Source of the DNA: a phage
Length of the DNA: 64,000 nucleotides
Sequence record: PQ374922.1
Strand: one strand, 5' to 3'
Shown: piece by piece, positions 32,675-59,714 of the stretch
Layout: each line of letters begins with the position of its first letter
How positions within the stretch are numbered: the stretch's first letter is position 1
Program-made: the position numbers and the translations under genes
Notes under the pieces: model-generated
The model's database searches: none
The model's input: only the letters and a program-made list of their open reading frames with translations
Told to the model about the DNA's origin: nothing

Positions 32675-32700
32675 TTCAATAACGGGGCGAAAGGTATCAT
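32675..32700 (+). promoter_or_regulatory. Candidate middle-type promoter: TTCAATAA box, 12-nt spacer, TATCAT
   Basis: Recurring TTCAATAA-N12-TAnnnT arrangement about 30 nt upstream of ATG 32730. Confidence 0.4.
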
Positions 32701-32729
32701 TACCCTCTCTATTAATCGAGGAAATCGCA

Positions 32730-32930
32730 ATGAGCCTGAAAGAAGATTCTGTAAACACCACAGTCGCCAACTCCACCTTCCGTGAGTGGCACGACGTATT
32801 ATGTAAAGTCGCGAAAAGCCAGGGTGGTTCAGCCGCCGACGCCGACGCCTGGCGTGATGACTACGAAGCGGGCAAGACACCTCGCCAGTCTTGGGAAGAT
32901 GAATGGGGTTGGGAAGAACAAGAAGGATAA
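32730..32930 (+). CDS. Small acidic Trp-rich hypothetical protein (66 aa)
   Basis: RBS gaggaaa; product unrecognised. Confidence 0.45.
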   Translation: MSLKEDSVNTTVANSTFREWHDVLCKVAKSQGGSAADADAWRDDYEAGKTPRQSWEDEWGWEEQEG

Positions 32931-32935
32931 CAGTT

Positions 32936-32961
32936 TTCAATAACGGGGTGAGAGGTATTAT
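32936..32961 (+). promoter_or_regulatory. Candidate middle-type promoter: TTCAATAA box, 12-nt spacer, TATTAT, with the -10 inside a hairpin
   Basis: Same box arrangement; arms acgggg and ccccgt flank the TATTAT. Confidence 0.4.
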
Positions 32962-32990
32962 TGCCCCGTCTACTATCCGAGGGTTGTACC

Positions 32991-33215
32991 ATGTACTTGA
33001 AAAAGATCGTGAAGAAGCCGAAAGCCGGTGTTGCCGAGGTGCGCCTCATCGAGGTTTACGTTGATTCTTGTAACAATGAGCAGTGTTACTTCATGGTCGA
33101 CACGATGGTGTATGTGCCAGCCTCTCACCTGAACCGTGATTTCGTCACAACCGAAAATGTCGTCCGCTGGGAGATTGCAACGCAGTCCGATATCGACGAA
33201 CACAACATTCTTTGA
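32991..33215 (+). CDS. Hypothetical protein (74 aa)
   Basis: First ATG in frame with RBS gaggg; ORF track begins at TTG 32961. Confidence 0.45.
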   Translation: MYLKKIVKKPKAGVAEVRLIEVYVDSCNNEQCYFMVDTMVYVPASHLNRDFVTTENVVRWEIATQSDIDEHNIL

Positions 33216-33232
33216 AAGGAAGGATCTATATC

Positions 33233-33676
33233 ATGTGTAACAAGAATTTCATTTTCATTAGTCCCGCCAAGAAACAGTTCTTCCGTAGCTCCGTTGGGGA
33301 CAAGGTGGAAGGTTTCCGTAAATTCAAAGATTATCGCCTGGCATGTGGTGATGTTGATTTTCAGAGTTTCGACAATGATCGCCAGGATTTGAACGATGAG
33401 GGTTGGACAGAAGTTCCATCCCCTCAGTATATCCATATCAAGCTGTACTACATGAAGGACAGCGGGAAGTATTATTCTGAAGGTGAACTCGTCCTCAATC
33501 GTGGAGAGGCTGAAGCTGAACCTGCTAAGTCCTGGATGGACACTATGGATAAAATCCGATATCTACTCGACTCAGGCAATTTGCCCGGTTTGGTTAAAGG
33601 TGCCCGGTACGAGGTCTTCGTGACCGGAGAAGGGCATCCAGGTGGTTATCCACAACTGTTCCGCATTAACAACTGA
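33233..33676 (+). CDS. Hypothetical protein (147 aa)
   Basis: RBS aaaggaagga; ORF track begins at TTG 33212. Confidence 0.5.
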   Translation: MCNKNFIFISPAKKQFFRSSVGDKVEGFRKFKDYRLACGDVDFQSFDNDRQDLNDEGWTEVPSPQYIHIKLYYMKDSGKYYSEGELVLNRGEAEAEPAKSWMDTMDKIRYLLDSGNLPGLVKGARYEVFVTGEGHPGGYPQLFRINN

Positions 33677-33684
33677 GGTTAAAC

Positions 33685-33921
33685 ATGATTATCAAAAAGA
33701 TCGGCGCAAGTCCTCTCACTGGTACTATATTCCAGGGCAGGTTGAACACCAAAACCAGCATGTGGGTTGGTGAGAAGACCGACGTGACAGATGACTGCGT
33801 GGCAGCTGTAGCTGAACACTTGCGTCACATCAAGAAAGACTATTGCTTCCCAACGACGGATGGTAAGTTTCTGGTGCTGAGCGCCGAGGTTCACGACACC
33901 CTTCCTGATCGCTTCAAATAA
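33685..33921 (+). CDS. Hypothetical protein (78 aa)
   Basis: RBS gagg; followed by hairpin acgggg...ccccgt. Confidence 0.5.
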   Translation: MIIKKIGASPLTGTIFQGRLNTKTSMWVGEKTDVTDDCVAAVAEHLRHIKKDYCFPTTDGKFLVLSAEVHDTLPDRFK

Positions 33922-34123
33922 ATTTTAAATTTATTCAATAAACGGGGTTTAATTCTTCAATAAACCCCGTATACTTCATTCCATAAGCAGCACAACACTG
34001 ACTCTGAAATGAAGGGACTATCACCAATCTCGTTACAAAGTAACATTGCAGCAATTTGTTCTAAACCTTTGAACAGGGTATGTTAACCGCATACCCTATC
34101 CCCTACAAATAGAGGACTTTACC

Positions 34124-34468
34124 ATGGCAGCAGACACCAAACTGAACAAATCCGTGGAGATCCCCCACATCGTCAAATTCGAAAAGCCGAGTGAGCGCAA
34201 GCCACGCAAAACGCGCCGCCTGGTCACCAAGCTGGATCTTCTGAAACAGAAGTTCGGCGACCACAGCGTGTTCACTCGCATTCGAAATGCAATAAAGGAA
34301 GGGCGAACTGAGCTGGAGCTATATCGACCGAACGGTTCGACACGCGCGTATCAGACCACTGACGGCTTACTGGAACTGATCCGCCTGAGCGGGATGACGA
34401 TCGAACCGCGTTCGTCAGGCACTCCTCTGTGCTCCCTGTACGTAATCGGCAATCTTGGGGCGCTGTGA
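34124..34468 (+). CDS. Hypothetical basic protein (114 aa)
   Basis: RBS agagga; Lys/Arg-rich N-terminal half. Confidence 0.5.
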   Translation: MAADTKLNKSVEIPHIVKFEKPSERKPRKTRRLVTKLDLLKQKFGDHSVFTRIRNAIKEGRTELELYRPNGSTRAYQTTDGLLELIRLSGMTIEPRSSGTPLCSLYVIGNLGAL

Positions 34469-34473
34469 GTTCT

Positions 34474-34896
34474 ATGAAGAAGTATATCGTTCTCATTACG
34501 GGTTCCCGCTCAATCACCGAGCGGGATAAGGTATTCGCCAAGCTGGACGAACTCCTCGATCCTCATGAGGTCTATACACTGATTGAGGGTGAAGCCTCTG
34601 GTGTGGACAAGATTTGCCGTGACTGGGCTGAAATCAATTATGTTCATATCACTCCTATGCCAATACCTCCGAGCTATTATGAAAAGTATGGGAAAGGGAT
34701 GGGCAACAAACGCAATCAGGACATGTTAGACAAGGCATTGGATCTCGTCAGGCAGACCAAGCTGGAAGTGTATCCGATTGCGATGTGGGATGGTTCGTCC
34801 ACTGGCACCCTGGACATGATCAACCGTTGCAAGAAAGCTGGCCTCCCTGTGGATATCACTCTAATGGGTAAGCCGAAGACCAAGCGCCTTTTGTAA
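34474..34896 (+). CDS. SLOG/LOG-like (Rossmann-fold, DUF2493-like) nucleotide-binding protein
   Basis: YIVLITGSR...EGEASGVDK...WDGSSTGTLDMI motifs typical of LOG/SLOG nucleotide-processing domains. Confidence 0.5.
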   Translation: MKKYIVLITGSRSITERDKVFAKLDELLDPHEVYTLIEGEASGVDKICRDWAEINYVHITPMPIPPSYYEKYGKGMGNKRNQDMLDKALDLVRQTKLEVYPIAMWDGSSTGTLDMINRCKKAGLPVDITLMGKPKTKRLL

Positions 34897-34937
34897 CATA
34901 TCATAAATAATTTGAGTATACACAGCGGAGATACATC

Positions 34938-35108
34938 ATGTTTGTCGTCATCAATCTGTTCTGTTACATCTTCACGGCGTACTTCTTGGGCGCGGTAGGG
35001 ATTGAGACCTACAATGACCTGAAGGATGGGGAATACGCCAACCGAATGGTTTATGTCAAGAAGTTTGTTCGTAAGTTCTGGTCCAACTTCGTTTACAAAC
35101 TACCATGA
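34938..35108 (+). CDS. Small hydrophobic protein (56 aa, one predicted TM helix)
   Basis: ATG preceded by ggag; below ORF-track cut-off; MFVVINLFCYIFTAYFLGAVG hydrophobic N-terminus. Confidence 0.35.
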   Translation: MFVVINLFCYIFTAYFLGAVGIETYNDLKDGEYANRMVYVKKFVRKFWSNFVYKLP

Positions 35109-35111
35109 TCC

Positions 35112-35122
35112 CTAAATACCCC
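35112..35122 (+). promoter_or_regulatory. Late-promoter-like motif CTAAATACCCC with complementary ATGGGGGTAT hairpin arm
   Basis: Exact box about 25 nt upstream of ATG 35147. Confidence 0.55.
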
Positions 35123-35146
35123 CATCATCCATGGGGGTATTTTCTT

Positions 35147-35875
35147 ATGAACACACAGATCTATGACGCCCTATCACAGGGCAACGCCTTTACCAATCCT
35201 CTCCCGTCCCTCAGCAGCGCCTCACAGGGGTTAATCACCAGTGGTAAGGCGACTACAGCGTCACTGGCTAACACCGGAAATGCGCAGATTCAGGAAGCGC
35301 TGACGGCAGGTGGGTTGACTACAGCCAAACTCAACGAATCTACAGCAATGTTCAACTCAGCCAACAACAGCATCACTACTTTGAACAACTATGGCGACCA
35401 GTCAGTGAACGAGGCATATTCCCGCATCGGTACATCTGTGTCGTATAAGTCCGCCCTGAAGTCTATAGGTCGAGAACCGAACAACTGTGATCTGATCAAT
35501 AATGCATTTGGGGTTATTCAGAACCTCGGCAAACAGTGGATCAACACCATGCAAAGTGTTCTCACAACTATCACAAACAAGATGAATGAGCTGGCTGAGT
35601 TGGTAGCTCAGGGTGTCAGTGCTGGTCTTGATGCTATTCGGGCACTGGCTGCTGAAGTTACTCAAGCCATCGACACTGCTGTCGCATCAGTAGCCTCTAT
35701 TGCTCAGGACATCACGAACGGTATTGCAGCAGAGTTAGCCCATATCCAAGACATGGTTGGTAAGTGTCTTAACTTCTCTTTTGCCAACGTGATCTCAGAG
35801 TGGGCGAAAGATATCTGCGCCGGAGGTGTCATCAACAGCATTGGTTCCGATAATCTGAAGAACGCGCTGAAGTAA
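35147..35875 (+). CDS. Ser/Thr/Asn/Ala-rich hypothetical late protein (243 aa), possibly virion-associated
   Basis: Late-promoter box directly upstream; low-complexity alpha-helical-looking sequence; start chosen downstream of the promoter box (ORF track ATG 35105 overlaps the box). Confidence 0.5.
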   Translation: MNTQIYDALSQGNAFTNPLPSLSSASQGLITSGKATTASLANTGNAQIQEALTAGGLTTAKLNESTAMFNSANNSITTLNNYGDQSVNEAYSRIGTSVSYKSALKSIGREPNNCDLINNAFGVIQNLGKQWINTMQSVLTTITNKMNELAELVAQGVSAGLDAIRALAAEVTQAIDTAVASVASIAQDITNGIAAELAHIQDMVGKCLNFSFANVISEWAKDICAGGVINSIGSDNLKNALK

Positions 35876-36283
35876 TCAGTGCTCCCGCGCCGGAAGAACT
35901 CCCACTGGTTCGATGCCATCCAACAGCAGGGAGTTCACACCCACATTACTCAGTCTGATCAAGATCGTTCCCCCTGGGTTAACTTCAAAGATACTCATCC
36001 CATTTCCAACCGCGTCGTTGTTAACGAACACACCCTGAGTTGCGATTCGTACTGGTTTATCTGAGTCATTCATGATCTTGAACGTCACGATTATATCTGA
36101 TGTTGTATCCAGTCGCCCAACCATGTGTTGCTTCAGCTTGGCATGGAATGATGGATTAAAAGTGATAATGATGCTGTTATTCTGAGAGTAATAAATACTT
36201 GCTGATAGGTATGGAATCTTCCCTTCATCGCCATGCCGCAGGAGAGGAATTGTGGTCTTCCAGTATGGCTTGAGGGTGCTCAT
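35876..36283 (-). CDS. Hypothetical protein on minus strand (about 135 aa; start uncertain)
   Basis: Only the C-terminal part of the 271-codon antisense ORF looks protein-like; convergent with the gene ending 35875; weak RBS. Confidence 0.3.
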   Translation of the reverse strand: MSTLKPYWKTTIPLLRHGDEGKIPYLSASIYYSQNNSIIITFNPSFHAKLKQHMVGRLDTTSDIIVTFKIMNDSDKPVRIATQGVFVNNDAVGNGMSIFEVNPGGTILIRLSNVGVNSLLLDGIEPVGVLPAREH

Positions 36284-36554
36284 GTTCTCATCAAAGCAAC
36301 CTAAAGGTACGAGCTTCTGGAAGGGCTGGAACTCTTGCACGATGATGTCCAGCATACCCTTGTTACAAGTGGGAACGCTGGCCGACAACGTCACAGGTAC
36401 AGTGCGCACTTCTGGGTTCCAGAGTTCGGAAACAGAAATTATTGGCGTGACAAAGATGCGACAGCTCGTAAACAAGAGCATCGAGCATGCCAACAACAAT
36501 CTACTGATCCCGCGCATCAGGGTCACAAAATATCTCCACAGCAAAGGTGCTATT

Positions 36555-37067: not shown

Positions 37068-37097
37068 TTCTATGACATTGACAAGCTGGGATATTTT

Positions 37098-37550: not shown

Positions 37551-37565
37551 CGAGGATCACACATA

Positions 37566-40217: not shown

Positions 40218-40404
40218 ATATTACTCTCGTGTGTTGGTTAACATGACATACATATTATTTCGCGTGCATGTTTAGACCAAATAAATTATTTTTGTTGTTG
40301 AATAAAAACTGCTTTCTTGTTGAACAATGGCGTGGTATTATACGAGTTGTGAGCGTTAGCGAACAACGAGTATTTGTTTTATGAGCGAAGCGAATAGGAT
40401 TAAT

Positions 40405-40445
40405 AAAAGTTATTATCTTTAATAAGGTTATTATCTTTAATAAAG
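40405..40445. repeat. Tandem duplication of an 18-nt AT-rich unit (gttattatctttaataag, two copies) in a 360-bp AT-rich intergenic region
   Basis: Direct tandem copies followed by palindrome aaatgccgaaggcattt; region 40218-40577 separates divergent genes. Confidence 0.5.
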
Positions 40446-40577
40446 TCCATAAATGCCGAAGGCATTTATTAATAACGCGTAGCGCAATTTGCCACTTGTT
40501 CTATAAGCAAAACACAGCGATACTAGATTTCGTCAAACATGACTTGAACCACCACTATATTTTGAGGATACATACAA

Positions 40578-41246
40578 ATGCAAGAGATCACTCTCTCCGA
40601 ACGTACACTTCAGTTGCTGGCCAACTTTGAGACCATCAACCCATCTATCGTTCTGACACCGGGCAAGATGCTGCGCAGTATTAATGATTCTTCTACTGTG
40701 ATCGCCGTGGCGCAGATCGAAGAAGACTTCCCGTTTGAGTTCCCGATTCTGGACCTGACCAAACTTCTGGCCATCCAGCGCCTACCTTCCTTCAAAGGTG
40801 CCAAAGCCGAATTCCATCAGGACTACATCCTGTTGAAAGGTGAAAGTTCTCAGCTGCAATTCTGGCGTTCTGCTAAAGAACTCACGGTTGTCCCGGCTGA
40901 TACTATCGAACTGCCGTCTGTTGACTTTGAAGCGATCATCACTCCAGAGAAGATGAAAGAACTGACCCGCGCCTGTTCTACCCTCGGACATAAGACTGTG
41001 CGCCTGGTTGCTCAGGGTGGCAAAACTCGCCTGGTTGCAACCACCACTACCCTGGACAACTCCAACAACTACACTGTTGAGCTGGGTGAAACCGCGCTGC
41101 CGGACTTCGTAATGCCGCTGGATGTTGCCAACCTGAAAATGATCGAAGGCAACTACACTCTGCGTGCCTGTGCTGATCTACAGATGGTGAACTTCCAATC
41201 ATCCGACGCGACGATCAATTACTTCGTCGGCGCACAGATTGAGTAA
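40578..41246 (+). CDS. Sliding clamp, gp45-like
   Basis: N-terminal TLQLLANFETINPSIVL matches T4 gp45 TTALLKNFATINSGIML; RBS gagga; optimal-codon-rich. Confidence 0.9.
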   Translation: MQEITLSERTLQLLANFETINPSIVLTPGKMLRSINDSSTVIAVAQIEEDFPFEFPILDLTKLLAIQRLPSFKGAKAEFHQDYILLKGESSQLQFWRSAKELTVVPADTIELPSVDFEAIITPEKMKELTRACSTLGHKTVRLVAQGGKTRLVATTTTLDNSNNYTVELGETALPDFVMPLDVANLKMIEGNYTLRACADLQMVNFQSSDATINYFVGAQIE

Positions 41247-41262
41247 TCAATCTCCAGCCTGA

Positions 41263-41300
41263 TGCTATAATGTGTGGGCGGGGCGTTCCCCGCCTATTTG
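41263..41300 (+). promoter_or_regulatory. Extended -10 promoter-like element (TGcTATAAT) followed by GC hairpin ggcgggg-cgtt-ccccgcc
   Basis: Between gp45 stop and gp44 start; the hairpin may be a 5'-UTR structure or a terminator. Confidence 0.4.
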
Positions 41301-41327: not shown

Positions 41328-42317
41328 ATGTCTAATATCACAATTGTAAAAGACCAGTATGCATGGGAAAACCGCTTCCGCCCTGACAACCTGGACGAGA
41401 TTATCATCCCTCAAGACGTCCGCGCTAAAATCCATGGCTACATCACCAGCGGCAACGGCAACATCCCGTCTATGCTGTTCTACTCCCCTCAGCCTGGTAC
41501 TGGCAAGACTACCTCCGCCCTGGCCGTGTGTAACGAGATCGGTTGTAAGCAACCACTGATGATCAACGCATCCCTGGACAACAGCATCGACGTTATCCGT
41601 GACCGCGTGATTCAGTACTCTACTGGTGTGAGCGTATTCGGTGGTCGCAAAGTCGTTATCCTCGACGAAGTAGAGCGTCTGTCTATGGCGGCACAGGAGT
41701 CGCTGAAGGGTATTGTGGAGAAGGTCTCCAAGAACTGTTCATTCATCCTGACCACCAACGCCAAGCAACGTGTGAACGAACCTCTGCGCTCTCGTTGCCG
41801 TGAAATCGACTTTATCTGGAATGAGACCGAGGCTGATGAGGTCAAACTTCAGTTCATGCGCCGCTGTGCTGAAATCCTTCGCTGCGAAGGTGTTGAGTAT
41901 GACCCTCCTGTGTTGGCTGCTATTGTCAAGCGCCATTTCCCTGATAACCGCCGCATCATGGGTGTTCTACAGGATAACGTCACCACTTACGGCAAGATCG
42001 ACGAACGTGCACTGGCTGTGTTAAAATCGGCCGATATGGGCATGTTGGTGAATATGTTGAAGGATAATGACTGGGCTGGGATGAAGCAGTGGGTGACCGA
42101 CAACCAGAACTATATCACTGAAGACTTCTATTCCCGCTTCTTCCAGTTCTGTGTACCACAGGATAAAGAGAAGCAAATGTTGGTTCAGAATGAGTCTATC
42201 CCTGATCTGGTATGTGTATGTGGTCAGTCTCAGATTGAACACCGTCAAGTCGGCGATGTCTGGCTGCATGCTGTGTTTTTCCTGACCAATGTCATGCTCA
42301 ACATCAAGTGGAAGTGA
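41328..42317 (+). CDS. Clamp loader large subunit, gp44-like AAA+ ATPase
   Basis: Walker A PQPGTGKTTSA, Walker B ILDEVE, sensor region; follows gp45 as in T4. Confidence 0.85.
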   Translation: MSNITIVKDQYAWENRFRPDNLDEIIIPQDVRAKIHGYITSGNGNIPSMLFYSPQPGTGKTTSALAVCNEIGCKQPLMINASLDNSIDVIRDRVIQYSTGVSVFGGRKVVILDEVERLSMAAQESLKGIVEKVSKNCSFILTTNAKQRVNEPLRSRCREIDFIWNETEADEVKLQFMRRCAEILRCEGVEYDPPVLAAIVKRHFPDNRRIMGVLQDNVTTYGKIDERALAVLKSADMGMLVNMLKDNDWAGMKQWVTDNQNYITEDFYSRFFQFCVPQDKEKQMLVQNESIPDLVCVCGQSQIEHRQVGDVWLHAVFFLTNVMLNIKWK

Positions 42318-44127: not shown

Positions 44128-44148
44128 GATATACAGTTGTTCACTAAA

Positions 44149-44176
44149 CAACAGAGGCTATAATGGCCTCTGTTTT
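44149..44176 (+). terminator. Hairpin terminator (cagaggc-tataatg-gcctctg + T-tract) with TATAAT in the loop
   Basis: 7-bp stem plus T-run after stop at 44127. Confidence 0.6.
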
Positions 44177-44195
44177 CGTATTCTAAGAGGATACC

Positions 44196-45416
44196 ATGAA
44201 AGATAAAGCCCTGGACGTCCCGTACTGCGGTGTCCGTGAAGAAAAGATAAAGTCGGCCAAACCGGTTCTCAGTCCGACCCATACCTGCCTGTCTTACGAA
44301 TGGATGCGCGATCGTTATCAGATCCACGTCAAGAAGGACGTCCAGCGCCTTCCTGCTCCTTGGACTGATAATCCCATATTACGGCAGGTCAAGTTCTGTA
44401 ACGTCCGGAGAGAGCACGACAGGCAGTCTCTCAACCTGATCAACAACATCGTCAACAACGATGCTCTGGGTATGGCCGACAAGATGTTCAACTGCGTGTT
44501 GTTCCGCATGTTCAACCTCTGGGATCCAATCCAGGCTATCGGCGGCGCGATGACGATCAAAGAATTCGCCGAGATCAACCTCGATGCAACCCGCGAACGA
44601 CTTAAGAAGTTCGAGGCCGACGGCGGTAAGGTATTCACCAATGCCTTCAACACGGGCGGCCTGAAACAATGCCTGGCTTTCCCTGAGATGGTTGTCAACC
44701 ACAAGGAGCAGCGCTTCGGTGGGATGATGGTGAATCTGATCTGTAAAGATGGTTCAACCCAGAACATGGATTATAAAGAAGCCAAGGCGATAGCCGAAGC
44801 AGAACCGGACTTCTACACCATCGAAGGTTGGGAACCGTACATGCCAATGCGTGTCATCCGCTCCCTGAAGGCATTCGTCAACAAGTATCCAAATTACTTC
44901 CATGACCTGCTGCGCCTTGGTACTCCTTTGGAAGTATACCAGCGCATGTACGACGACATCGAAGGGCTTGGTCCATTCCTGGCCTATCAGATCTGGGTAG
45001 ACTTCACTTACATTCCTGAATATCCTTTCAGTGAGAACCACTTCACGGTTGCTGGACCAGGCTGTCGCGCAGGGATCGACCTGATGTTCCAGGACAAAGA
45101 TGGCATGACGCATGAAGAATGCATCTTCTGGTTGCGGGACAATCAGGACGCGGTTTATGGCCCTCTTGGGTATAACAGGGAAGAATTTTGGTCTGCGGAA
45201 GAGCCTTGGGATCAGTGTATGAATGTGATGAGCATCGAGAATATGGCATGTGAATTGTCGAAATATACTCGTTGTGTAGAGGCCATACAGCAAGGTAAAA
45301 AACCGCGCGGGAAGGTTGGATATGACGGCGGTGGGGAATACAAAAAGCGCTGTGATGAAGTCGTGCTCAAACGTGGTTCCGTCAATTTGCTGGACCGTTT
45401 GAAGAAACCTGAATAA
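44196..45416 (+). CDS. Hypothetical protein (406 aa)
   Basis: RBS aagagga; no recognisable motif by eye. Confidence 0.55.
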   Translation: MKDKALDVPYCGVREEKIKSAKPVLSPTHTCLSYEWMRDRYQIHVKKDVQRLPAPWTDNPILRQVKFCNVRREHDRQSLNLINNIVNNDALGMADKMFNCVLFRMFNLWDPIQAIGGAMTIKEFAEINLDATRERLKKFEADGGKVFTNAFNTGGLKQCLAFPEMVVNHKEQRFGGMMVNLICKDGSTQNMDYKEAKAIAEAEPDFYTIEGWEPYMPMRVIRSLKAFVNKYPNYFHDLLRLGTPLEVYQRMYDDIEGLGPFLAYQIWVDFTYIPEYPFSENHFTVAGPGCRAGIDLMFQDKDGMTHEECIFWLRDNQDAVYGPLGYNREEFWSAEEPWDQCMNVMSIENMACELSKYTRCVEAIQQGKKPRGKVGYDGGGEYKKRCDEVVLKRGSVNLLDRLKKPE

Positions 45417-45436: not shown

Positions 45437-45462
45437 TTCAATAACTCAATCCAGCGTATATT
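45437..45462 (+). promoter_or_regulatory. Candidate middle-type promoter: TTCAATAA box, 12-nt spacer, TATATT
   Basis: Same arrangement as at 32675 and 32936; about 70 nt upstream of ATG 45531 with a GC hairpin in the leader. Confidence 0.4.
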
Positions 45463-45530
45463 GACCTCACTTAAACGAAGCGCCCTGGCAAACGGGGCGC
45501 ACATTTGAACTGAAACAGGAAGATTACACC

Positions 45531-47549
45531 ATGTCAGATTTTAAGCCCTTCGCAGTAGCTGTCAACAATAACGTGCTGGCCATGTCAGCAACTGGTCTGT
45601 TCATGACCAACATCGATAAAGATGCTCTGTGGGATCTGTATCTGTCTTCTTTCCCTGCTGGCACTAACCCGCTTTATCGTGAGCGTACCGAGCACGACTG
45701 TACCTGCTGCAAACAATTCATCCGTAACATCGGCGGTGTAGTCACCATCGACTCCGATCTGAACGTGATCTCTATCTGGGATAACATTCAGCTGGGTAAC
45801 GAATACGACGTTGTCGCTGCGGCGCTGTCAGCATATGTTAAGCAGCACGCAATCGTCGACGTGTACTTCAACGACACCAAGAAAGTTGGTGTTGAATCGA
45901 ATCACGAAATGAAAGACGGTATTGTCCGCACCTACAACCACTTCCACACCGACCTGCTGGGCAGCTATGTTCTGCGGGCAGATACCATCGCTTCTAAGAA
46001 GGGTGAAATCCGCCAGGCGATTGAAGTGTTTGAGCGCGGCCTGCGTGAACTGTCTCTGGAATCGGCTGAAATCGTTCTGGAATTGATCGACCAGAATTCT
46101 CTGTATCGCGGTGAAGAGCACAAAGCGGCAGTGCAGGCGTTCGTGGTGAACAAGACCCTGTACGAACAAACTGCAGAAGAGAAACGCGCTCTGTGGGCTT
46201 GGCGCACTGGCTACCGTGCAAACGGTCATACCCCTCACGGCATTCGTAATACCGTGATTGGCTCTCTGCTGGTAGACCTCAATGAAGGCCGGGATCTGGA
46301 AACCGCCGTGAAGTCCTTTGAAGCCAAAGTCGCTCCGACGAACTACAAGCGCCCAACCGCGCTGGTCACGAAATCCATGATTGAAAACGCGCAGAAAGAA
46401 GTCGAAGCGCTGGGTCTGACTGATTCACTGGGTCGCCGTTATGCCGTGTATGACGATCTGACCATCAACAACGTTCTGTTCGCCGACCTAGCAGCTCAGA
46501 AGAAGATGGACCCGTTTGCTCAGCTGGCGTCTGAAGTGAAGACTCCGACCAAGTCCCTGGACAAGGTTGAAGAGATCACGATCGACGACTTCCTGACCAA
46601 CGTGTTGCCAAAGGCGCATTCCCTGGAAGTGCTGGTCGAAAACTCTCACATTGGCAACCTGATGTCCCTGATCGCTCCGGCCACCGCAGGCGCTCCTAAC
46701 CTGTTCAAGTGGAACAACGGCTTCAGCTGGTCGTACAATGGCGAAGTGGCCGACTCCATCAAAGAGCGCGTGAAGACCGCAGGCGGCAATGTCGACAGCT
46801 TCCTCCGTGTGTCACTGGCTTGGCATAACAACGACGACCTGGATCTGAGCCTGAACGATCCTCTTCACAACCACGTGTATTATCACAACCGTCGTTCGAC
46901 AACTGGCGCAACTCTAGACATCGACATGAACGGTATGGACGGCATTGATCCAAACCGCCGTCCGGTGGAGAACATCTTCTTCAGCGATGAACGCAAGCTG
47001 CGTGATGGTCTGTACGAGTTCTATGTCACTAACTTCAGCCAGCGTGAAACCTGTGATATGGGCTTCGAAATCGAAGTTGAATACAAAGGCCAGACCAAGC
47101 GTTTTTCGCATCCTGGCCTGAAGCACAAAGATCGCACTCTGGCTGTTGTGATTGATGTCCGCGCTGGACAAGTGGTAGACATCCGTTCTACCCTGAAAGA
47201 CGACGCTCGCTCTCAGGAAATCTGGGGCATCAAGACCTCCGTCTTCCAGAAGGTACAGCTGGTTCTGAACTCACCAAACCATTGGGACGGCGAGCAGACT
47301 GGCAACAAGCACGTGTTCTTCATCCTGGAAGGTTGTGCTAACCCTGTCGGCACCCGTGGTTTCTATAACGAATATCTGAAGCCGGAACTTGATAAACACC
47401 GCAAGGTTTTTGAAATGTTAGGTGGTAAGATTAAAGTACAGCCAAGCACTGAGCAGCTGTCCGGTCTGGGCTTCTCTACCACCCAACGCAACCACGTGTT
47501 CGTGAAGGTGAGCGGTTCGTTCAACCGCACTGTGAAAGTTGTGTTCTAA
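45531..47549 (+). CDS. Large hypothetical protein (672 aa); weak ADP-ribosyltransferase-like signature in the C-terminal half
   Basis: RBS aggaag; R...STT...EIE spacing loosely reminiscent of R-S-E ADP-ribosyltransferases; not confirmed. Confidence 0.5.
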   Translation: MSDFKPFAVAVNNNVLAMSATGLFMTNIDKDALWDLYLSSFPAGTNPLYRERTEHDCTCCKQFIRNIGGVVTIDSDLNVISIWDNIQLGNEYDVVAAALSAYVKQHAIVDVYFNDTKKVGVESNHEMKDGIVRTYNHFHTDLLGSYVLRADTIASKKGEIRQAIEVFERGLRELSLESAEIVLELIDQNSLYRGEEHKAAVQAFVVNKTLYEQTAEEKRALWAWRTGYRANGHTPHGIRNTVIGSLLVDLNEGRDLETAVKSFEAKVAPTNYKRPTALVTKSMIENAQKEVEALGLTDSLGRRYAVYDDLTINNVLFADLAAQKKMDPFAQLASEVKTPTKSLDKVEEITIDDFLTNVLPKAHSLEVLVENSHIGNLMSLIAPATAGAPNLFKWNNGFSWSYNGEVADSIKERVKTAGGNVDSFLRVSLAWHNNDDLDLSLNDPLHNHVYYHNRRSTTGATLDIDMNGMDGIDPNRRPVENIFFSDERKLRDGLYEFYVTNFSQRETCDMGFEIEVEYKGQTKRFSHPGLKHKDRTLAVVIDVRAGQVVDIRSTLKDDARSQEIWGIKTSVFQKVQLVLNSPNHWDGEQTGNKHVFFILEGCANPVGTRGFYNEYLKPELDKHRKVFEMLGGKIKVQPSTEQLSGLGFSTTQRNHVFVKVSGSFNRTVKVVF

Positions 47550-48720: not shown

Positions 48721-48954
48721 ATGTCTAAAGAGATTATCTTTACCGGGGCGGCGCTTGACACCATGTATGCCCTGTACAATCGTGGTCCACTGAGCATTGG
48801 CGATATCCCGTCTAAGTCAGGTCTGGACTTCCTGTTGCGACATAAGCTGGTTGTGGCTGTGGTAGTCAGGGGTGAAACGCAATACGCCGGGTCGATGGCC
48901 ATGGCTTCCCACTACAAACGTCAGACATGGAAGGGCGCTTCCTCCAAATCCTGA
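48721..48954 (+). CDS. Hypothetical protein (77 aa)
   Basis: ATG 8 nt after the previous stop. Confidence 0.4.
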   Translation: MSKEIIFTGAALDTMYALYNRGPLSIGDIPSKSGLDFLLRHKLVVAVVVRGETQYAGSMAMASHYKRQTWKGASSKS

Positions 48955-49025
48955 GTTTGTCAAAACCTTTTCAATATCAATAACGTCCAGCGTAAATGCT
49001 GGGCGTTTCAATTTGTGCATCACAG

Positions 49026-49031
49026 TATAAT
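49026..49031 (+). promoter_or_regulatory. Sigma70-like -10 hexamer TATAAT upstream of the Prs-like/Nampt-like pair
   Basis: Perfect TATAAT about 30 nt upstream of ATG 49063; upstream region also holds overlapping TTCAATA-like boxes. Confidence 0.4.
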
Positions 49032-49062
49032 ACGGCTGTACAATACACCATGAGGCTACATT

Positions 49063-49917
49063 ATGTTTCGTTTGAAATTGAACGACCAAGATGTGTTCTA
49101 CAAACACTTCACCTTCCCAGGTGGTGAGGAACATATCAAGATTCAAAAGTCTGGTATCCCTATCGGCCACGTTCAGAACGTGGCGATTGATGCTCACATC
49201 AAATCATCGGCTGACTTCATTGAGCTGGCGCTTCTGGTAAACGCCGTTCGTGGTCTGGGTAACGTGGACCGTCTGACGACATTCCATGCGTATATCCCTT
49301 ACTTCCCGTATGCTCGCCAGGACCGCCATTGTGACTTCGGTGAGCCTCTGTCTGTGAAGTGGGCGGCTGAGTTCATCAATAGCATGAACTTTGACCGCGT
49401 GGCGATCAAAGATCCTCACAGCCATGTTGTGTCTTCTCTGATCAACAACGTCCATGTTGTCCCGCAAGATTACATCGTGCGTCAGTATCTGGGCTGGTTC
49501 ATCCGTGGGAACAACGCTGTGTTGGTAGCCCCTGACGGCGGCGCGGCTAAGAAGACCGAAGCCCTCAGTCTGTCGTTGGACGGTGTTCCTGTTGTCTACG
49601 GTCACAAGAACCGTGACACCAAGACTGGTGAGATCATTGGGGTGAGTATTACGAACCCTGAACTGATCAAAGACCGCTATCTGGTGGTGGTCGATGATAT
49701 CTGCGACGGTGGGCGCACGTTCGTTGAGTTAGGCAAAGAGCTTCAGAAGCACAAGCCTAAGCACATGACGCTCTTCGTTACCCATGGCATCTTCAGCAAA
49801 GGTCTCTCTGTTTTCGACGGGATCTATGATGCTGTGTATGCCGACACTGTCTGGTGGGAGAACATCACCGCCGACGGGCTTCCTTTCAAAACTGAAAATA
49901 CAGGACGTGTAAAATGA
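49063..49917 (+). CDS. Ribose-phosphate pyrophosphokinase-family protein (Prs-like; candidate ADP-ribose pyrophosphate synthetase of NARP1)
   Basis: 284 aa; phosphoribosyl-binding loop LVVVDDICDGGRT (diverges from canonical DTGGT); RBS gagg. Confidence 0.8.
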   Translation: MFRLKLNDQDVFYKHFTFPGGEEHIKIQKSGIPIGHVQNVAIDAHIKSSADFIELALLVNAVRGLGNVDRLTTFHAYIPYFPYARQDRHCDFGEPLSVKWAAEFINSMNFDRVAIKDPHSHVVSSLINNVHVVPQDYIVRQYLGWFIRGNNAVLVAPDGGAAKKTEALSLSLDGVPVVYGHKNRDTKTGEIIGVSITNPELIKDRYLVVVDDICDGGRTFVELGKELQKHKPKHMTLFVTHGIFSKGLSVFDGIYDAVYADTVWWENITADGLPFKTENTGRVK

Positions 49918-54096: not shown

Positions 54097-54121
54097 GGGC
54101 GGGGCAACCCGCCTTTCTTTG
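54097..54121 (+). terminator. Terminator-like hairpin (ggcggg-gcaa-cccgcc + T-tract)
   Basis: After stop at 54090. Confidence 0.6.
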
Positions 54122-54132
54122 GGAGAAGTAGC

Positions 54133-54456: not shown

Positions 54457-54460
54457 CAGA

Positions 54461-54490
54461 AGCCCCCAACAAACGTTGGGGATTTTTACT
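54461..54490 (+). terminator. Rho-independent terminator (cccccaac-aaac-gttggggg + T-tract)
   Basis: 8-bp stem plus T-run after stop at 54456. Confidence 0.65.
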
Positions 54491-54564
54491 TTTAGGGGTT
54501 TACTTCCTCTAAGGAATGTCCTATTATTCAATAACTGGCGAACGATGGCGTTCACCAGATTGAG

Positions 54565-55064: not shown

Positions 55065-55123
55065 TTCTATAACTTTGGGCGGGGTATGATTACCCCGTCT
55101 ATTTGAAACCAAGAGACTATATC

Positions 55124-55498
55124 ATGAAAAAGTTAATCCTCGCTGTTGCCCTGCTGGGCGCTTCCTTTGCTGCTGTTTCCGCCCCTCCTGTCATCACCGG
55201 AGTGTCTACCAACGGTGTTTATGCTTTCAAGGCGTATGGCCAAGACCTCGTTCTGTATAAGAACGGGAAGATGATTGAGCGCTGCGTATCAGACGACGTG
55301 AATCGTGGGATCGACAATCAGGGCAGCCCATACGTCCTGGACATCTATTCCTGCTCTAACGGGACGAAGTCCTTTGGCGTCAAGACCTTTGGCAACGTCG
55401 CCGACGGTGGCTGGGGCTTCATGTTCGAAACCCGCAACCACCACCCGGTCAAGACCATGCAAGAAGAGTTCTTGATCTCTGTCGGGGGTACGTTATGA
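55124..55498 (+). CDS. Exported protein with cleavable signal peptide (124 aa precursor)
   Basis: MKKLILAVALLGASFAAVSA followed by PP; two Cys in mature part; ORF track begins at TTG 55103. Confidence 0.55.
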   Translation: MKKLILAVALLGASFAAVSAPPVITGVSTNGVYAFKAYGQDLVLYKNGKMIERCVSDDVNRGIDNQGSPYVLDIYSCSNGTKSFGVKTFGNVADGGWGFMFETRNHHPVKTMQEEFLISVGGTL

Positions 55499-55782: not shown

Positions 55783-55942
55783 TTTGGATAAAGAATTGGT
55801 TTGGGAAATTGTGAAGGGTGTCCTAGTAATAATCGCGGTGGTTTTCATCTTGGGTGGGAACTTCTTCTATTGGTTATTCCGATCCGACCAGAAACGTCGC
55901 GAACGCAAGGAGAAAGAGAGAAAGGATCGATGGATGCGCTAA
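55751..55942 (+). CDS. Possible tiny membrane protein (non-ATG start, position uncertain)
   Basis: Hydrophobic segment VLVIIAVVFILGGNFFYWLF followed by a basic tail; no in-frame ATG before the hydrophobic segment. Confidence 0.2.
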   Translation: MTVDLKKTRYNLDKELVWEIVKGVLVIIAVVFILGGNFFYWLFRSDQKRRERKEKERKDRWMR

Positions 55943-55974
55943 CTAAGGGATAACCCTATATCCCGAGGTGTGTC

Positions 55975-56424
55975 ATGTTCCTTACATCTTTTATTGACTG
56001 GTTGAACATCATTAACGGCCTGAGGATTCCTGTTGGGAACCTCGGGCTTTCGCGTTCTTCTATGCCACAAATCGATGCCGACAAACAAGAAGATTTTCAC
56101 AAATATCTTGAAGACAACGGCGTGTCCATAGATGCTGTACAAGTGCCCATCAAAATGCTTCGTCTCACCCAGAACGAAATCAACAAGATGAAGGTCTGGA
56201 AGATCATGAAGAACATCAGAAATAAGAAACCTATGGGTCGAGTTTGGGTGTCTTCTGACAATTACGTTGTTGACGGTTCTCACCGATTTGTCGCTGCGTT
56301 GAACATGGACGGCAAACAGCGCATGAAGGTCTACAAAGTTGATTTGCCAGCGATGGAATTTGTTAAACTCGCTAAACAGTTTCAGGGTGTGCGATACAGA
56401 ACGGTCAGCGATACTCGTTTCTGA
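55975..56424 (+). CDS. ParB/sulfiredoxin-like nuclease-domain protein
   Basis: 149 aa; VVDGSHRFVAAL resembles the ParB N-terminal DGxHR motif; RBS gagg. Confidence 0.55.
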   Translation: MFLTSFIDWLNIINGLRIPVGNLGLSRSSMPQIDADKQEDFHKYLEDNGVSIDAVQVPIKMLRLTQNEINKMKVWKIMKNIRNKKPMGRVWVSSDNYVVDGSHRFVAALNMDGKQRMKVYKVDLPAMEFVKLAKQFQGVRYRTVSDTRF

Positions 56425-56503
56425 ATACGATAGTTTATTGAATCCCTTTACTCATCATGGTGAGCCGCCTATCATTTCATCCAATGAAATAAGGAGAATC
56501 ACC

Positions 56504-57190
56504 ATGAAACGTTTAATCCTCGGGGTTGTGCTGGCTGGTCTGGCATTACCCGCCGCTGCCAAGCTGAACTCCACAGGTGATAAACTGTGGTCCGACCTTT
56601 CCTATTGTGCTGGGTTCTCCCAGGCGGTTGCCATCGACAAGTCTGGTTCCATAGAGAACTTCGCTGAACTCTGGAACACAGGCAACGTCTCCACTGCTGT
56701 CATCAATGCCGGAATTGAGTTCAACCGTTACAAACAGGGAGCCTATAACCTCAAAGGCTACCTCAATGACGACGAATTTAACCGTGGAGGCATGGAGGCT
56801 GGCGATTTGATCATGACTGGGCGTATGGGCACCCAAGGCCGAATGACCGTAAGACAGTGCCGTTCGCTCCCTTCTCCGGCATTACAGAAGGGTGTGCAGG
56901 TTGGTCGCCGCCACCTGAACCTTATCAACGATGGCAACCAGTGCATCAAAGTATTCGAATACAGCGCTACGCAGACCTCTGATCGCGTCCTGAAGAAGGA
57001 ATGGCGCACCCGCGCTCTTGGTCTCAGAGCCTGGCTGGTTGAGAACGATTATTACTTTGAAGACAGGGTTCAGAACGGTCTGAAAGACCTGGCCACGAAT
57101 CTGAGCGTGAACCTTGATGATCCCCGCATGTCGCGCGAACTCCAGCAGACTCGTGTTGACTGCGACAATATGATGAAGGAGAACGAGTGA
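56504..57190 (+). CDS. Exported protein with signal peptide (228 aa precursor)
   Basis: MKRLILGVVLAGLALPAAA followed by K; RBS aaggaga; ORF track begins upstream at 56339. Confidence 0.55.
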   Translation: MKRLILGVVLAGLALPAAAKLNSTGDKLWSDLSYCAGFSQAVAIDKSGSIENFAELWNTGNVSTAVINAGIEFNRYKQGAYNLKGYLNDDEFNRGGMEAGDLIMTGRMGTQGRMTVRQCRSLPSPALQKGVQVGRRHLNLINDGNQCIKVFEYSATQTSDRVLKKEWRTRALGLRAWLVENDYYFEDRVQNGLKDLATNLSVNLDDPRMSRELQQTRVDCDNMMKENE

Positions 57191-57516
57191 TGAAATGTAA
57201 AATCCTGCTCTTGTTGGTACTGATAGCCGGGTGTGTAAATGCCGCGCCACCGTCTAAACTGAACACATGTGTGGCATGGATGGAGACGTATCAGCAGTTC
57301 CACCCAGATGACAAAGACACATCTATCCTCCTGTCCGACTTCGAGGGGGAGCTGAAGCGCCTTGATCTGTTCAGTGTTGATCAGATAGAGAATGCGCTGG
57401 ATCTTCCCATGATGCTGACTGCGGCTGACAACAGTACACAAACGAAGAAAGACCTGATGTATTGCCGGGGGATTGCCCAGGACTTTGTCGGATTTCAAAA
57501 TAAAGTTTCGGGTTAA
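57190..57516 (+). CDS. Predicted lipoprotein (108 aa precursor)
   Basis: Signal MKCKILLLLVLIAGC with lipobox LIAGC; start overlaps upstream stop. Confidence 0.6.
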   Translation: MKCKILLLLVLIAGCVNAAPPSKLNTCVAWMETYQQFHPDDKDTSILLSDFEGELKRLDLFSVDQIENALDLPMMLTAADNSTQTKKDLMYCRGIAQDFVGFQNKVSG

Positions 57517-57555
57517 AATTTAGCCCTACAATGTGAACTGAAGGAATACACTGTG

Positions 57556-58422
57556 ATGCTCCTGACCAAAACAATCGCTGCGGCGATTATCGAAAAGAAT
57601 AAGGCTTTTGCCCCCAACGCAGCCAAAGTTATGTTGGTACACGAAGACGCTCGCGTGATCTTCGCCGAGAAGTTCGAGATGGGCGCGAAGTTCTGGTATG
57701 CCGACAACTTGCGTGAGAGCAAACTTCAGGGTATCATCCACAAACTGACTCTGGTCGCCAAGCGTAATGACCAGGGTGACTGGGTCGGCGTTTCTGACTT
57801 CAGTACGAAGATCACCCCAAAGGCTCCGCTTTCTCGTCAAGAGCGCATTCTGGAAGCCCAGGAAAAGCTGCGTGCGGCTCGGAGTACCCCAAAGGCGAAA
57901 CCAGATGCAAGCCCTGTCATCAAGCCAGCGGTTGTTCCTAAGTCCAAATACCTCCCGCCCGTGAGTCAAAAGGCTGTGGAGCAATTGGTCGAGAAGCGCA
58001 AGGGTGACGTTGTGATGAAGTCTGACTCTTCAGTGGAGCCGTTCAAGCCGGATCCAGCAGAAGTACAGGCGCTGGCAGAAAAGGTAAAGAATTCACAATT
58101 CATTTCCTTGCGTGAACTTGAACCGCCTACTCGCCGTCGTGTCGCCAACGAGCTGTTTGTGTCGTTCAGGTCGGATGGCAAGATCGTCCTGTGCAAAGCC
58201 CTGCGCGATGCAATCCCTTGGACAACTCTGAACATGATGGTCACTCGCGACTTCAAGCGTTTTGGTATCATGCAAGGCAAGGACTACAACGTCAACCAGA
58301 GCGGGACTTATGTTAATCGCGCCATGTGTGACAAACTGACCTTCCCAGAAGATACCGGAACGATCCGTGTCGTTCTGAACTGGGACGACAAGCTGAACAT
58401 GTATGTTGGCGATTTCCAATAA
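57556..58422 (+). CDS. Hypothetical protein (288 aa)
   Basis: RBS aaggaa; Lys/Pro-rich central linker. Confidence 0.5.
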   Translation: MLLTKTIAAAIIEKNKAFAPNAAKVMLVHEDARVIFAEKFEMGAKFWYADNLRESKLQGIIHKLTLVAKRNDQGDWVGVSDFSTKITPKAPLSRQERILEAQEKLRAARSTPKAKPDASPVIKPAVVPKSKYLPPVSQKAVEQLVEKRKGDVVMKSDSSVEPFKPDPAEVQALAEKVKNSQFISLRELEPPTRRRVANELFVSFRSDGKIVLCKALRDAIPWTTLNMMVTRDFKRFGIMQGKDYNVNQSGTYVNRAMCDKLTFPEDTGTIRVVLNWDDKLNMYVGDFQ

Positions 58423-58478
58423 TCAATAACCTCGGGCGGCTTATCATAAAGCTGCCCTTTCATTTGAGTGACTATATC

Positions 58479-58940
58479 ATGGAAAAACTTTATTCTATTA
58501 TCGTCGGTCCTGATCCTGACGGATTATTCTTCGCCCCGTTGTCTTATATTGCCCACGCCCGTATCGGTAGCCATTACGCATATTGCACACGTGGCCACGA
58601 CGGTTCCAATATCCTCCATTATAGCCGCCTGAACGATTTCCTGGCACTTCAACCAGAAGATGTTGTGTTGGCGCGTCGCGTGTTCATCGACTTCAACGCG
58701 ATGCACAACAACGAAATCGACGCTCGCTATCATGCCATGCGTTCTATGGAAGGGGGAGACTGCATTTATCGTATCGACCATTTTAGTGAGTTTACCCAAT
58801 CTATTGATTGGTTCGTTTCAGAAAAGACGTTGGGTGAAAGAATCGTCACAACTCCGTGGGCACATGCGGACAACTTCGTGTGTCTACCGATGCGTACAAA
58901 GAAGTCGACAATCTGTGCAACAAGTTCCGCATCTCGGTGA
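58479..58940 (+). CDS. Hypothetical protein (153 aa)
   Basis: First ATG in frame (ORF track begins at TTG 58464); 3' end overlaps the next ORF in another frame. Confidence 0.45.
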   Translation: MEKLYSIIVGPDPDGLFFAPLSYIAHARIGSHYAYCTRGHDGSNILHYSRLNDFLALQPEDVVLARRVFIDFNAMHNNEIDARYHAMRSMEGGDCIYRIDHFSEFTQSIDWFVSEKTLGERIVTTPWAHADNFVCLPMRTKKSTICATSSASR

Positions 58941-59140
58941 CCTGTAATCAAGACCTGGGCGAAGAGATACAATGGACAGCTGAGTCTCCTCATTTCAGTG
59001 GCCTGGTGATGACGGCCGAAACCCGTTCCCGTGCTGTTGTCCAGTTAGTACTCTGGGCGTTCTACCAGCGCACCCCGTTCTCATACATGGGACAGAAAGA
59101 GATTGATGAACTCCTGAAGTCTCACGCGGTGGAGGTATGA
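58856..59140 (+). CDS. Hypothetical ORF overlapping the 3' end of the previous gene (possible frameshift continuation or separate gene)
   Basis: Protein-like translation in the +1 frame relative to 58479-58940; no RBS before ATG 58856. Confidence 0.3.
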   Translation: MGTCGQLRVSTDAYKEVDNLCNKFRISVTCNQDLGEEIQWTAESPHFSGLVMTAETRSRAVVQLVLWAFYQRTPFSYMGQKEIDELLKSHAVEV

Positions 59141-59141
59141 C

Positions 59142-59420
59142 ATGGCTGGTGTATGGTGTGATGTCTTGCTGGTTCGTTACAGCGTAAATGGGAGCACGCA
59201 AGTGTGTTCTGCTTTCTATCCGGTCCCGTTCTCTTCCGGTGGCCTGACGGTTCAGCGAGTTCTCAATATTGAGGCAGAACTGAACAAAAAGTCTTTTGGT
59301 GTACAAGTCCTGGGGTACGATCTTCTGAATGAAATGATGGTTGAAGAAGACAAAGTTGAGACTGTCATTGGTCGTCAGGAGATGGAATCGTTAATCTCCA
59401 AATCGGAGGTCAAATCATGA
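59142..59420 (+). CDS. Hypothetical protein (92 aa)
   Basis: RBS ggaggt. Confidence 0.45.
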   Translation: MAGVWCDVLLVRYSVNGSTQVCSAFYPVPFSSGGLTVQRVLNIEAELNKKSFGVQVLGYDLLNEMMVEEDKVETVIGRQEMESLISKSEVKS

Positions 59421-59668
59421 GTCCCAACATGGCAATAATCTGGGTTGGTGAATCGTCAATGCGTTGTCCTCACAAGACGATCACCTTCTTGGACGATGAG
59501 CGCCTGGCCGAACAACGGGTTGAAGTCCGCGAAATGCAGGTTTCTTCAAAGGCGGTGAACGTTCCTGTGACTAATATTCAGACTTTTAAGCCTTGCGTTA
59601 GAGTGATTTGTGAACGCTGTGGATGTTATGGCACGATGACGACTGAAGACGTGGCGAAAGGCTATTAA
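59417..59668 (+). CDS. Hypothetical Cys-containing protein (83 aa)
   Basis: ATGA overlap; CxxC pair near C-terminus. Confidence 0.45.
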   Translation: MSPNMAIIWVGESSMRCPHKTITFLDDERLAEQRVEVREMQVSSKAVNVPVTNIQTFKPCVRVICERCGCYGTMTTEDVAKGY

Positions 59669-59688
59669 TTCCGCTTTATTCAATAAAA

Positions 59689-59714
59689 TTTGTTAGTTAA
59701 ACTGTAGTCCTCTT
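59689..59714 (+). promoter_or_regulatory. Candidate middle-type promoter: TTCAATAA box, about 12-nt spacer, TAAACT
   Basis: About 45 nt upstream of the HU-like gene ATG. Confidence 0.35.

Follow-up and report, generated by a model that had tools for sequence, protein, structure and literature searches.

The DNA considered here, hereafter the window, comprises 64,000 nucleotides (nt) of phage sequence (record PQ374922.1). Its segment 32000-46000 is 98.8% identical, at 100% query coverage, to Escherichia phage YX22, which is classified in the Ackermannviridae, subfamily Aglimvirinae. Other members of the family match the same segment, namely the Agtrevirus Ag3 (~91%), Dickeya phages of the Limestone type (~86%) and, at lower identity, relatives infecting Salmonella and Klebsiella. 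YX22, which is assembled whole, and CBA120, a Kuttervirus from another subfamily, served as comparison genomes. Nearly all genes of the window lie on the plus strand. The first 32.6 kb carry the tail-spike, neck, terminase, sheath, tube, portal, scaffold and capsid genes; beyond them are small open reading frames (ORFs) without assigned function, together with genes for UvsY, UvsW, gp45, gp44/62, RegA, an HU-like protein, a helicase and RNase H. In this second part an octamer box, TTCAATAA, recurs upstream of genes and is followed after about 12 nt by a -10-like hexamer, TAnnnT. This arrangement, here called class A, is the subject of the present analysis.

The octamer occurs ten times in the window, seven of these on the plus strand, against 2.05 copies expected, and none of 100 shuffled sequences reached ten. 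The composite TTCAATAA-N12-TAnnnT is present three times (0.06 expected) and TCAAT-N14-TATNAT four times (0.16 expected), and a chance origin of the TTCAATAA repeats can be excluded. An initial annotation of this DNA had proposed comparing intergenic with coding sequence as a check on the motif. The whole YX22 genome bears it out: 22 of the 30 octamers are intergenic, whereas intergenic sequence makes up 8.65% of that genome (binomial p = 1e-17), and 18 of those 22 are directed at a gene start no more than 250 nt away. In CBA120 the octamer is present 44 times; at least 24 copies are intergenic, many at positions orthologous to those in YX22. Spacers between the octamer and a good -10 hexamer show a sharp maximum at 12 nt (YX22, 8 of 30 boxes; CBA120, 9 of 44); control octamers made by permutation and searched with one mismatch gave on average ~1.3 matches per spacer length in the two genomes pooled. 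Measured from TTCAAT, the first six bases of the box, the peak lies at N14, with 12 sites in each genome. Across 25 curated YX22 sites the box consensus, with the number of sites carrying each base, is T22 T25 C25 A21 A23 T22 A19 A16, the spacer is 12 nt in 17 sites, 11 nt in five and 13 nt in three, and the hexamer is T22 A25 T21 A17 A22 T25. From the start of the box to the ATG the median distance is 60 nt, with an interquartile range of 56-70 nt.

Class A sites appear in the window only from position 32675, the end of the late module, onward; those described below are on the plus strand. At three places the initial annotation had reported the box, a 12-nt spacer and a hexamer, and all three are exact: 32675-32700 (TATCAT), 32936-32969 with its hairpin included (TATTAT at 32956-32961) and 45437-45462 (TATATT). 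The first lies 9 nt past the stop codon of 31194-32666, the gene that closes the late module, and its box starts 55 nt ahead of the ATG of an ORF of 66 amino acids (aa; 32730-32930). The second is followed by the ORF 32991-33215 and the third by an ORF of 672 aa (45531-47549). The fourth reported site, upstream of the gene for the HU-like DNA-binding protein (59759-60037; Pfam Bac_DNA_binding, E = 6e-30), has a genuine box and the hexamer TAAACT, but the box is located at 59679-59686, 10 nt from the reported 59689, and the spacer to the hexamer (59698-59703) is 11 nt instead of 12; this site, 59679-59703, is best described as class A-like. Copies reported as overlapping at about 48970-48984 do overlap, but they are only near-copies, TTCAATAT (48970-48977) and ATCAATAA (48976-48983), lying in the 3' end of a coding sequence and lacking a usable -10. 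Relatives have at the position of this degenerate site an intact TTCAATAA-N13-TATATT within a hairpin. Downstream of site 45437, the predicted initial transcribed region (45463-45500, GACCTCACTTAAACGA) is highly conserved; after it comes a leader hairpin, GCGCCC...GGGCGC, with a loop that differs among lineages.

Beyond what had been annotated, the window holds exact plus-strand copies of the octamer at 33934, 33956 and 54527, which are not of the box-N12 type, and variant boxes with the core TCAAT, which add sites at 40499, 41246, 44140, 49007, 55065 and 58422. The first of these (40499-40524: TTCTATAA, 12 nt, GATACT) is upstream of the gp45 sliding clamp gene (40578-41246). The next (41246-41295) has its box, ATCAATCT, over the gp45 stop codon, with TATAAT (41266-41271, TGc ahead of it) after 12 nt, and precedes the clamp loader gene gp44 (41328-42317). 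Site 44140-44184 (TTCACTAA, 11 nt, TATAAT at 44159-44164) is upstream of 44196-45416. Site 49007-49031 (TTCAATTT, 11 nt, TATAAT) is embedded in the last codons of 48721-49053, its box starting 56 nt ahead of the ATG of 49063-49917, a gene that aligns to an AV101 gene annotated as ribose-phosphate pyrophosphokinase. Site 55065-55101 (TTCTATAA, 12 nt, TATGAT at 55085-55090) is upstream of 55124-55498, and site 58422-58466 consists of ATCAATAA, 12 nt and TATCAT (58442-58447). The genes that follow class A sites comprise those for replication and nucleotide metabolism (gp45, gp44/62, phosphoribosyl pyrophosphate synthetase and, in YX22, nrdA) and small ORFs. A site at 62663 (TTCTATAA-N11-GATATT) was rejected, the end of its hexamer being only 6 nt from the ATG, and the minus-strand octamers at 7069 and 52356, which are antisense within coding sequence, were set aside.

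Some features of the surroundings of these sites may be recorded here. The stretch 40218-40577, between a minus-strand ORF and gp45, is AT-rich and, with 360 nt, the longest intergenic stretch of its part of the window; it contains a tandem 18-nt repeat (40406-40441) and may serve as an origin of replication or in regulation. A start-codon context, (A/T)CTATATCATG, has five matches with one mismatch allowed (1.05 expected), among them 55116-55126, 58471-58481 and 33225-33235, and also recurs often at the starts of YX22 genes that follow cassettes. The segment 58479-59140 is the counterpart of an intact 663-nt YX22 gene; it has five in-frame stops and is split into the ORFs 58464-58940 and 58856-59140, owing to a frameshift or a sequencing error.

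Conservation was followed through homologues of the 672-aa protein downstream of 45437, gathered from 71 viral contigs. All loci of Ackermannviridae type (69-99% protein identity) and the more divergent L185 (51%) keep TTCAATAA, a spacer of 12-13 nt and a TATAAT-like hexamer; the spacer sequence and the upstream neighbour vary. The motif was not found upstream of more distant homologues (38-47% identity). In an alignment of nine lineages at this site the octamer is the sole invariant eight-column block upstream of the -10. Sites orthologous to 40499, 41246, 44140, 49007 and 55065 are likewise kept in relatives. That at 40499 is kept in all of them, and L185 (51% identity) has there the canonical TTCAATAC-N11-TAATAT; at 55065 relatives carry TTCAATAA or ATCAATAA. 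The CBA120 orthologue of 58422 has TTCAATAA with the same spacing and hexamer position and another stem sequence, and at 44140 the stem CAGAGGC/GCCTCTG is replaced in L185 by GGGGAGC/GCTCCTC, with TATAAT staying in the loop. A scan of IMG/VR for TTCAATAA-N12-TATAAT returned scattered single matches at chance level and was uninformative on distribution.

All class A sites lie outside the late structural module, where another, late-promoter-like motif, CTAAATAYC, serves instead. It occurs eight times (0.52 expected), always on the plus strand and between 3064 and 38317, upstream of structural genes (3064, 6440, 11636, 18147, 22430, 25238, 35112 and 38309); the copies at 35112 and 38309 are in the early/middle region, the latter ahead of UvsW. 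Both elements have been described before. TTCAAT[N14]TATAAT and CTAAATAcCcc are named as two 'unique regulatory motifs' of the ViI-like phages (Viunalikevirus / Ackermannviridae), and are cited for EspM4VN (PMC7283392). Since TTCAATAA-N12-TATAAT is the same as TTCAAT-N14-TATAAT, the motif was already known, and the sites of the window are this published motif: sequence and register are identical, the phage family and the companion late motif are the same, and there is no essential difference from class A. Sites 32675, 32936 and 45437 match the published form exactly, and the sites are intergenic, co-oriented and conserved. Both motifs reportedly stem from the 2012 proposal of the genus Viunalikevirus. 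What is added here is the conserved AA at box positions 7-8, the variant boxes with the core TCAAT, the nested hairpin with T-run in about half of the sites and a coexisting TTTACT-N17 class. In an earlier study of CBA120 and the ViI-like phages, early and middle promoters were not identifiable by informatics (Kutter 2011, PMC3184105). On the evidence of sequence, position and conservation, class A sites are very probably pre-late promoter cassettes, conserved in the ViI-like (Ackermannviridae) phages and belonging to the published class.

About half of the class A sites have a nested GC hairpin, often with a T-run after it. The initial annotation had the -10 lying inside a short hairpin in several cases, and this holds for four sites, at which the hexamer is in the loop or the inner stem: 32936 (hairpin 32943-32969, hexamer in the loop), 44140 (an 11-base-pair (bp) hairpin at 44150-44174, z = -5.8, with TATAAT at its apex and a T-run behind), 55065 (55076-55101, z = -4.3, hexamer at the apex) and 58422 (58434-58457, hexamer in the loop, followed by TTTCATTTGA). 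The hairpin at 32675 is weak, and 45437 and 59679 have none; at 41246 a GC hairpin (41276-41295) follows the -10. A terminator scan independently picked 44150-44174 and 58434-58457, and site 44140 looks like a terminator/promoter cassette.

The sites with hairpins look like composite terminator/promoter cassettes of the PeSL type. PeSL stem-loops of T4-like phages lie mostly between -35 and -10 or over the -10, and act as terminators (PMC2839356; PMC4122927). The class A cassettes share with PeSL and PmSL cassettes (Arbiol 2010, PMC2839356; Comeau 2014, PMC4122927) the nesting of a promoter with a GC-rich stem-loop, the placement of that stem-loop over the -10 or in the interval that separates the -10 from the upstream element, the tight fit between small ORFs and, perhaps, the presence of gene-module indel junctions at the cassettes. 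PeSL promoters differ in having sigma70 N17 spacing, whereas the class A box is N14 from its TTCAAT hexamer and only the second class described below has N16-17; moreover, promoter and terminator activity as well as mini-circles have been demonstrated for PeSLs, whereas class A cassettes are known only as sequences. Three gene-module indels relative to other phages adjoin cassettes of the window and may mark sites of module exchange: at 41246 YX22 has an extra gene, at 45437 AV101 and the Kuttervirus type have two extra genes, and at 55065 relatives have an extra 507-nt gene, missing in the window, whose CBA120 RefSeq label is 'RNA polymerase ADP-ribosylase'. These junctions, like those described for PeSLs, and the terminator-like look of several sites could also be taken to mean that the element acts at the level of RNA or recombination, with UUCAAUAA plus hairpin being a 3'-end or processing signal, or the repeats being crossover points for module shuffling, and neither having a role in initiation. 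Such a reading is very improbable: sites 45437 and 59679, which lack a hairpin, keep box, spacing and -10 across genera, the register is fixed to the TATAAT hexamer and not to the hairpin, and module shuffling would follow from the repetition of promoters, with which it does not compete as an explanation.

A second promoter-like class, here called class B, has the pattern TTTACT/TTTAAT-N16/17-TAT(A/T)(A/C)T and is conserved in relatives. The exact pattern occurs twice in the window (0.03 expected), and TTTACT peaks at N17 in both YX22 and CBA120 (five sites each); TTGACA has no spacing peak in either genome. With TTCAAT at N14 and TTTACT at N17 in the same genomes, the earlier statement that the class A spacing is shorter than that of sigma70 promoters proves correct. 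Class B agrees in consensus and spacing with the T4-type early promoters, TTTACW-N17-TAYWAT (PMC4122927), and class A does not. All nine products examined downstream of class B promoters lack an assigned function. In the window, plus-strand class B promoters are found at 33934-33975 (TTTAAT at 33948-33953, 16 nt, TATACT at 33970-33975), 54499-54534 (TTTACT, 17 nt, TATTAT at 54522-54527) and 56447-56475 (TTTACT, 17 nt, TATCAT). Two octamers, at 33934 and 33956, flank or lie inside the 10-bp hairpin (33942-33970) of the first, and the octamer at 54527-54534 overlaps and follows the -10 of the second; none of them is counted as class A. An inverted box, TTATTGAA (56435-56442), lies 4 nt upstream of the third.

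Inverted boxes, CTATTGAA or TTATTGAA, are also found 11-12 nt upstream of TATAAT-like hexamers, where there are eight matches against ~1.9 for control octamers. Three orthologous promoters have them in both YX22 and CBA120; the positions are 12768, 16226 and 26117 in YX22 and 12814, 17872, 27560 and 157229 in CBA120. The octamer often lies within or beside class B spacers, at variable positions where a bound protein would block the polymerase. Such placement would suit a box that serves as an operator and is bound by a regulator or a nucleoid-type protein, for instance the HU-like protein (59759-60037), which would modulate and perhaps repress promoters consisting of a -10 only; an HU-family protein is indeed encoded, and one box is upstream of its gene. 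HU-family proteins, however, have little sequence specificity, and a fixed N12 register is typical of a core promoter element or of a class II-type activator site. An operator role is improbable.

The initial annotation had likened the class A arrangement to the MotA-dependent middle promoters of phage T4, which work by sigma appropriation through MotA and AsiA. The geometry supports this likeness: in both cases a sigma70-type -10 (TAnnnT) is combined with a box near -30, 11-13 bp upstream, that replaces the -35 element (the class A box would lie at about -32 to -25), and both kinds of site stand ahead of replication and nucleotide-metabolism genes. The likeness does not extend to the sequence of the box. 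The Mot box, which is centred at -30, reads (a/t)(a/t)(a/t)TGCTT(t/c)A in consensus, and the class A box TTCAATAA is unrelated to it. TGCTT has also been given for the Mot box (PMC4122927). Class A further differs in the occurrence of inverted boxes, in the lack of a MotA or AsiA homologue in the genomes that carry it, and in being known from sequence alone. The search for a MotA/AsiA-like pair that had been proposed came out negative for YX22, CBA120 and the window: with T4 MotA and AsiA as queries the best E values were 1.5 and 0.089 by tblastn and 3.4 and 0.78 by phmmer, whereas the T4 positive controls gave 1e-134 and 1e-56. This agrees with the published account, in which MotA, AsiA, Alt and ModA are absent from these phages (Kutter 2011, PMC3184105). 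The interpretation in the initial annotation is thus supported only in part.

Candidates for a protein that reads the box were sought among the products of the window. The best tblastn match to MotA there, at 55166-55453, is insignificant (E = 4.2), and the product concerned (55124-55498) is not a transcription factor, because it has a conserved N-terminal signal peptide. A signal peptide also speaks against the 228-aa product of 56504-57190, which is close to MotA in size and driven by a class B promoter. For the basic 114-aa product of 34124-34468, likewise driven by class B, the AlphaFold2 model has a predicted local distance difference test score of 69.8 with residues 1-29 disordered, and was uninformative; Foldseek against the Protein Data Bank gave a best E value of 0.21, with low-scoring IF3-C, R3H and KH-like folds, none of them significant. 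Pfam and PHROGs scans of 20 products encoded beside the sites, including the YX22 counterparts of regulators annotated in the CBA120 RefSeq record, revealed no sigma-binding or Mot-like domain; they found only the HU-family protein, a PHROGs 'transcriptional regulator' family (weak Pfam Phage_DsbA, E = 0.2), DUF5856 and families without assigned function. Resemblances to the motifs of sigma32 (CTTGAA-N13-15-CCCCAT), IHF (WATCAANNNNTTR) and H-NS (TCGATAAATT) were dropped, since by eye the flanking positions do not fit.

These data bear on a reading in which TTCAATAA, at about -30, is bound by a phage protein unrelated to MotA, and this protein, by itself or together with an anti-sigma partner, brings sigma70 polymerase to box-N12 promoters after the early phase, with TTTACT-N17 as an early class served by the host alone. 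The box-hexamer distance, 11-13 nt as in Mot-box promoters, is strict, and none of the eight box positions varies among lineages. A separate class with sigma70 geometry does exist and stands ahead of ORFs without assigned function only, with class A ahead of replication and nucleotide-metabolism genes and small ORFs. The inverted boxes at N11-12 in both genomes suit a DNA-binding protein mildly better than sigma region 4. Set against this are the negative homologue searches in the three sequences and the poor candidates, two being signal-peptide proteins and the third without a significant fold match. We hold this explanation as a tentative one, short of probable.

The class A -10 itself is of sigma70 type, which leads to a further explanation, that the unaided host sigma70 holoenzyme uses these sites as early promoters, the near-consensus -10 allowing TTCAAT to act as a degenerate -35-like element at 14-bp spacing. 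This reading is said to have been put forward in the original description of Viunalikevirus. In its favour, A2 and T6 of the hexamer are present in all 25 sites and T1 in 22 of them, TTCAAT and TTTACT weakly resemble TTGACA, positions -14 and -13 are often G, and an extended -10 of the TGn form is present at one site. Class A is also the most abundant non-late motif, and the first genes to be expressed need a driver; we know of no injected factor in these phages. That 'many additional promoters' must act early was stated for this group before (Kutter 2011, PMC3184105).

The spacing speaks against unaided use. Spacers of sigma70 promoters measure 16-18 bp, and the 14 bp seen here are outside that range; nothing is conserved at N16-18, including the position 17 nt upstream of the -10, so that the canonical -35/-10 geometry is absent. 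Conservation of the box extends past the hexamer to positions 7-8 (AA). The strict N17 spacing of TTTACT in the same genomes implies that the geometry of the polymerase is not shifted overall. A generic sigma70 consensus scan yielded no excess over shuffled sequence (17 found vs 18.6; 20 vs 15.8), which is consistent with earlier work, where no more than about eight sigma70-like promoters were reported for Ag3 and CBA120. Unaided recognition by the host enzyme is likewise a tentative explanation, short of probable.

Class A sites share one layout. Directly past the upstream stop codon stands the 8-bp box, with the consensus TTCAATAA and the core TCAAT, then a spacer of 12 nt (range 11-13), a TATAAT-like -10 and, some 30 nt beyond the hexamer, the ATG. 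With a -10 of the host sigma70 type, host RNA polymerase would most likely start about 7 nt downstream of it. The box, at about -32 to -25, is 3 bp too near the -10 for a sigma70 -35 element, and its reader is therefore probably not unmodified sigma region 4. A putative phage-encoded factor is the most plausible reader, at a likelihood somewhat below even; an unusual direct contact of the box with the host polymerase is a tentative alternative. Given a promoter cassette, we see about equal odds for a box that depends on a factor and for one that host polymerase uses directly. At the sites with hairpins, transcripts arriving from upstream would form the hairpin and be stopped or stabilised, whereas a start about 7 nt past the hexamer would fall in the 3' arm, so that transcripts born at the cassette should lack it, as judged from the geometry.

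In a more specific form, TTCAATAA would be the binding site of an Ackermannviridae protein that is analogous but unrelated to MotA (or to MotA with AsiA) and switches sigma70 polymerase from TTTACT-N17 to box-N12 promoters; stated this precisely, the idea is rather unlikely. Two observations, the boxes in or beside early-type promoters and the inverted copies whose distance to the -10 is unchanged, are hints of one factor, which would activate from -32 to -25 and repress from inside an early promoter.

Several points weigh against the cassettes being promoters read through their box. The searches described above found no trans-acting factor for it. The octamer is also seen in class B spacers, across part of a -10 and, in inverted form, at N11-12, and the sequence of the box therefore does not by itself define a single function. 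Some of the boxes are weak variants, for example TTCTATAA-GATACT. The virion DNA of ViI-like phages is reported to carry hypermodified thymidines (PMC5889632), and these could alter the recognition of a T-rich box. Since the searchable literature offers no transcript 5'-end or expression data for these phages, promoter activity and timing can only be inferred.

Two differences from YX22 lie in the late module. The tail-spike region (3104-11264) is 70-95% identical and has ORFs of unlike length, which is typical for host-range modules. Between the tail sheath and tail tube genes, a minus-strand ORF (24401-25195) has a GIY-YIG domain (E = 1.4e-6) and is probably a homing endonuclease; YX22 has in its place a different, co-oriented gene.

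If the N14 register and the N17 class correspond to two modes of recognition, the Ackermannviridae would have a sigma-redirecting system unrelated to that of T4. The cassettes mark the boundaries of transcription units, knowledge of which is needed for engineering these phages. The family is widespread, and its members find use in biocontrol and supply reporter phages.

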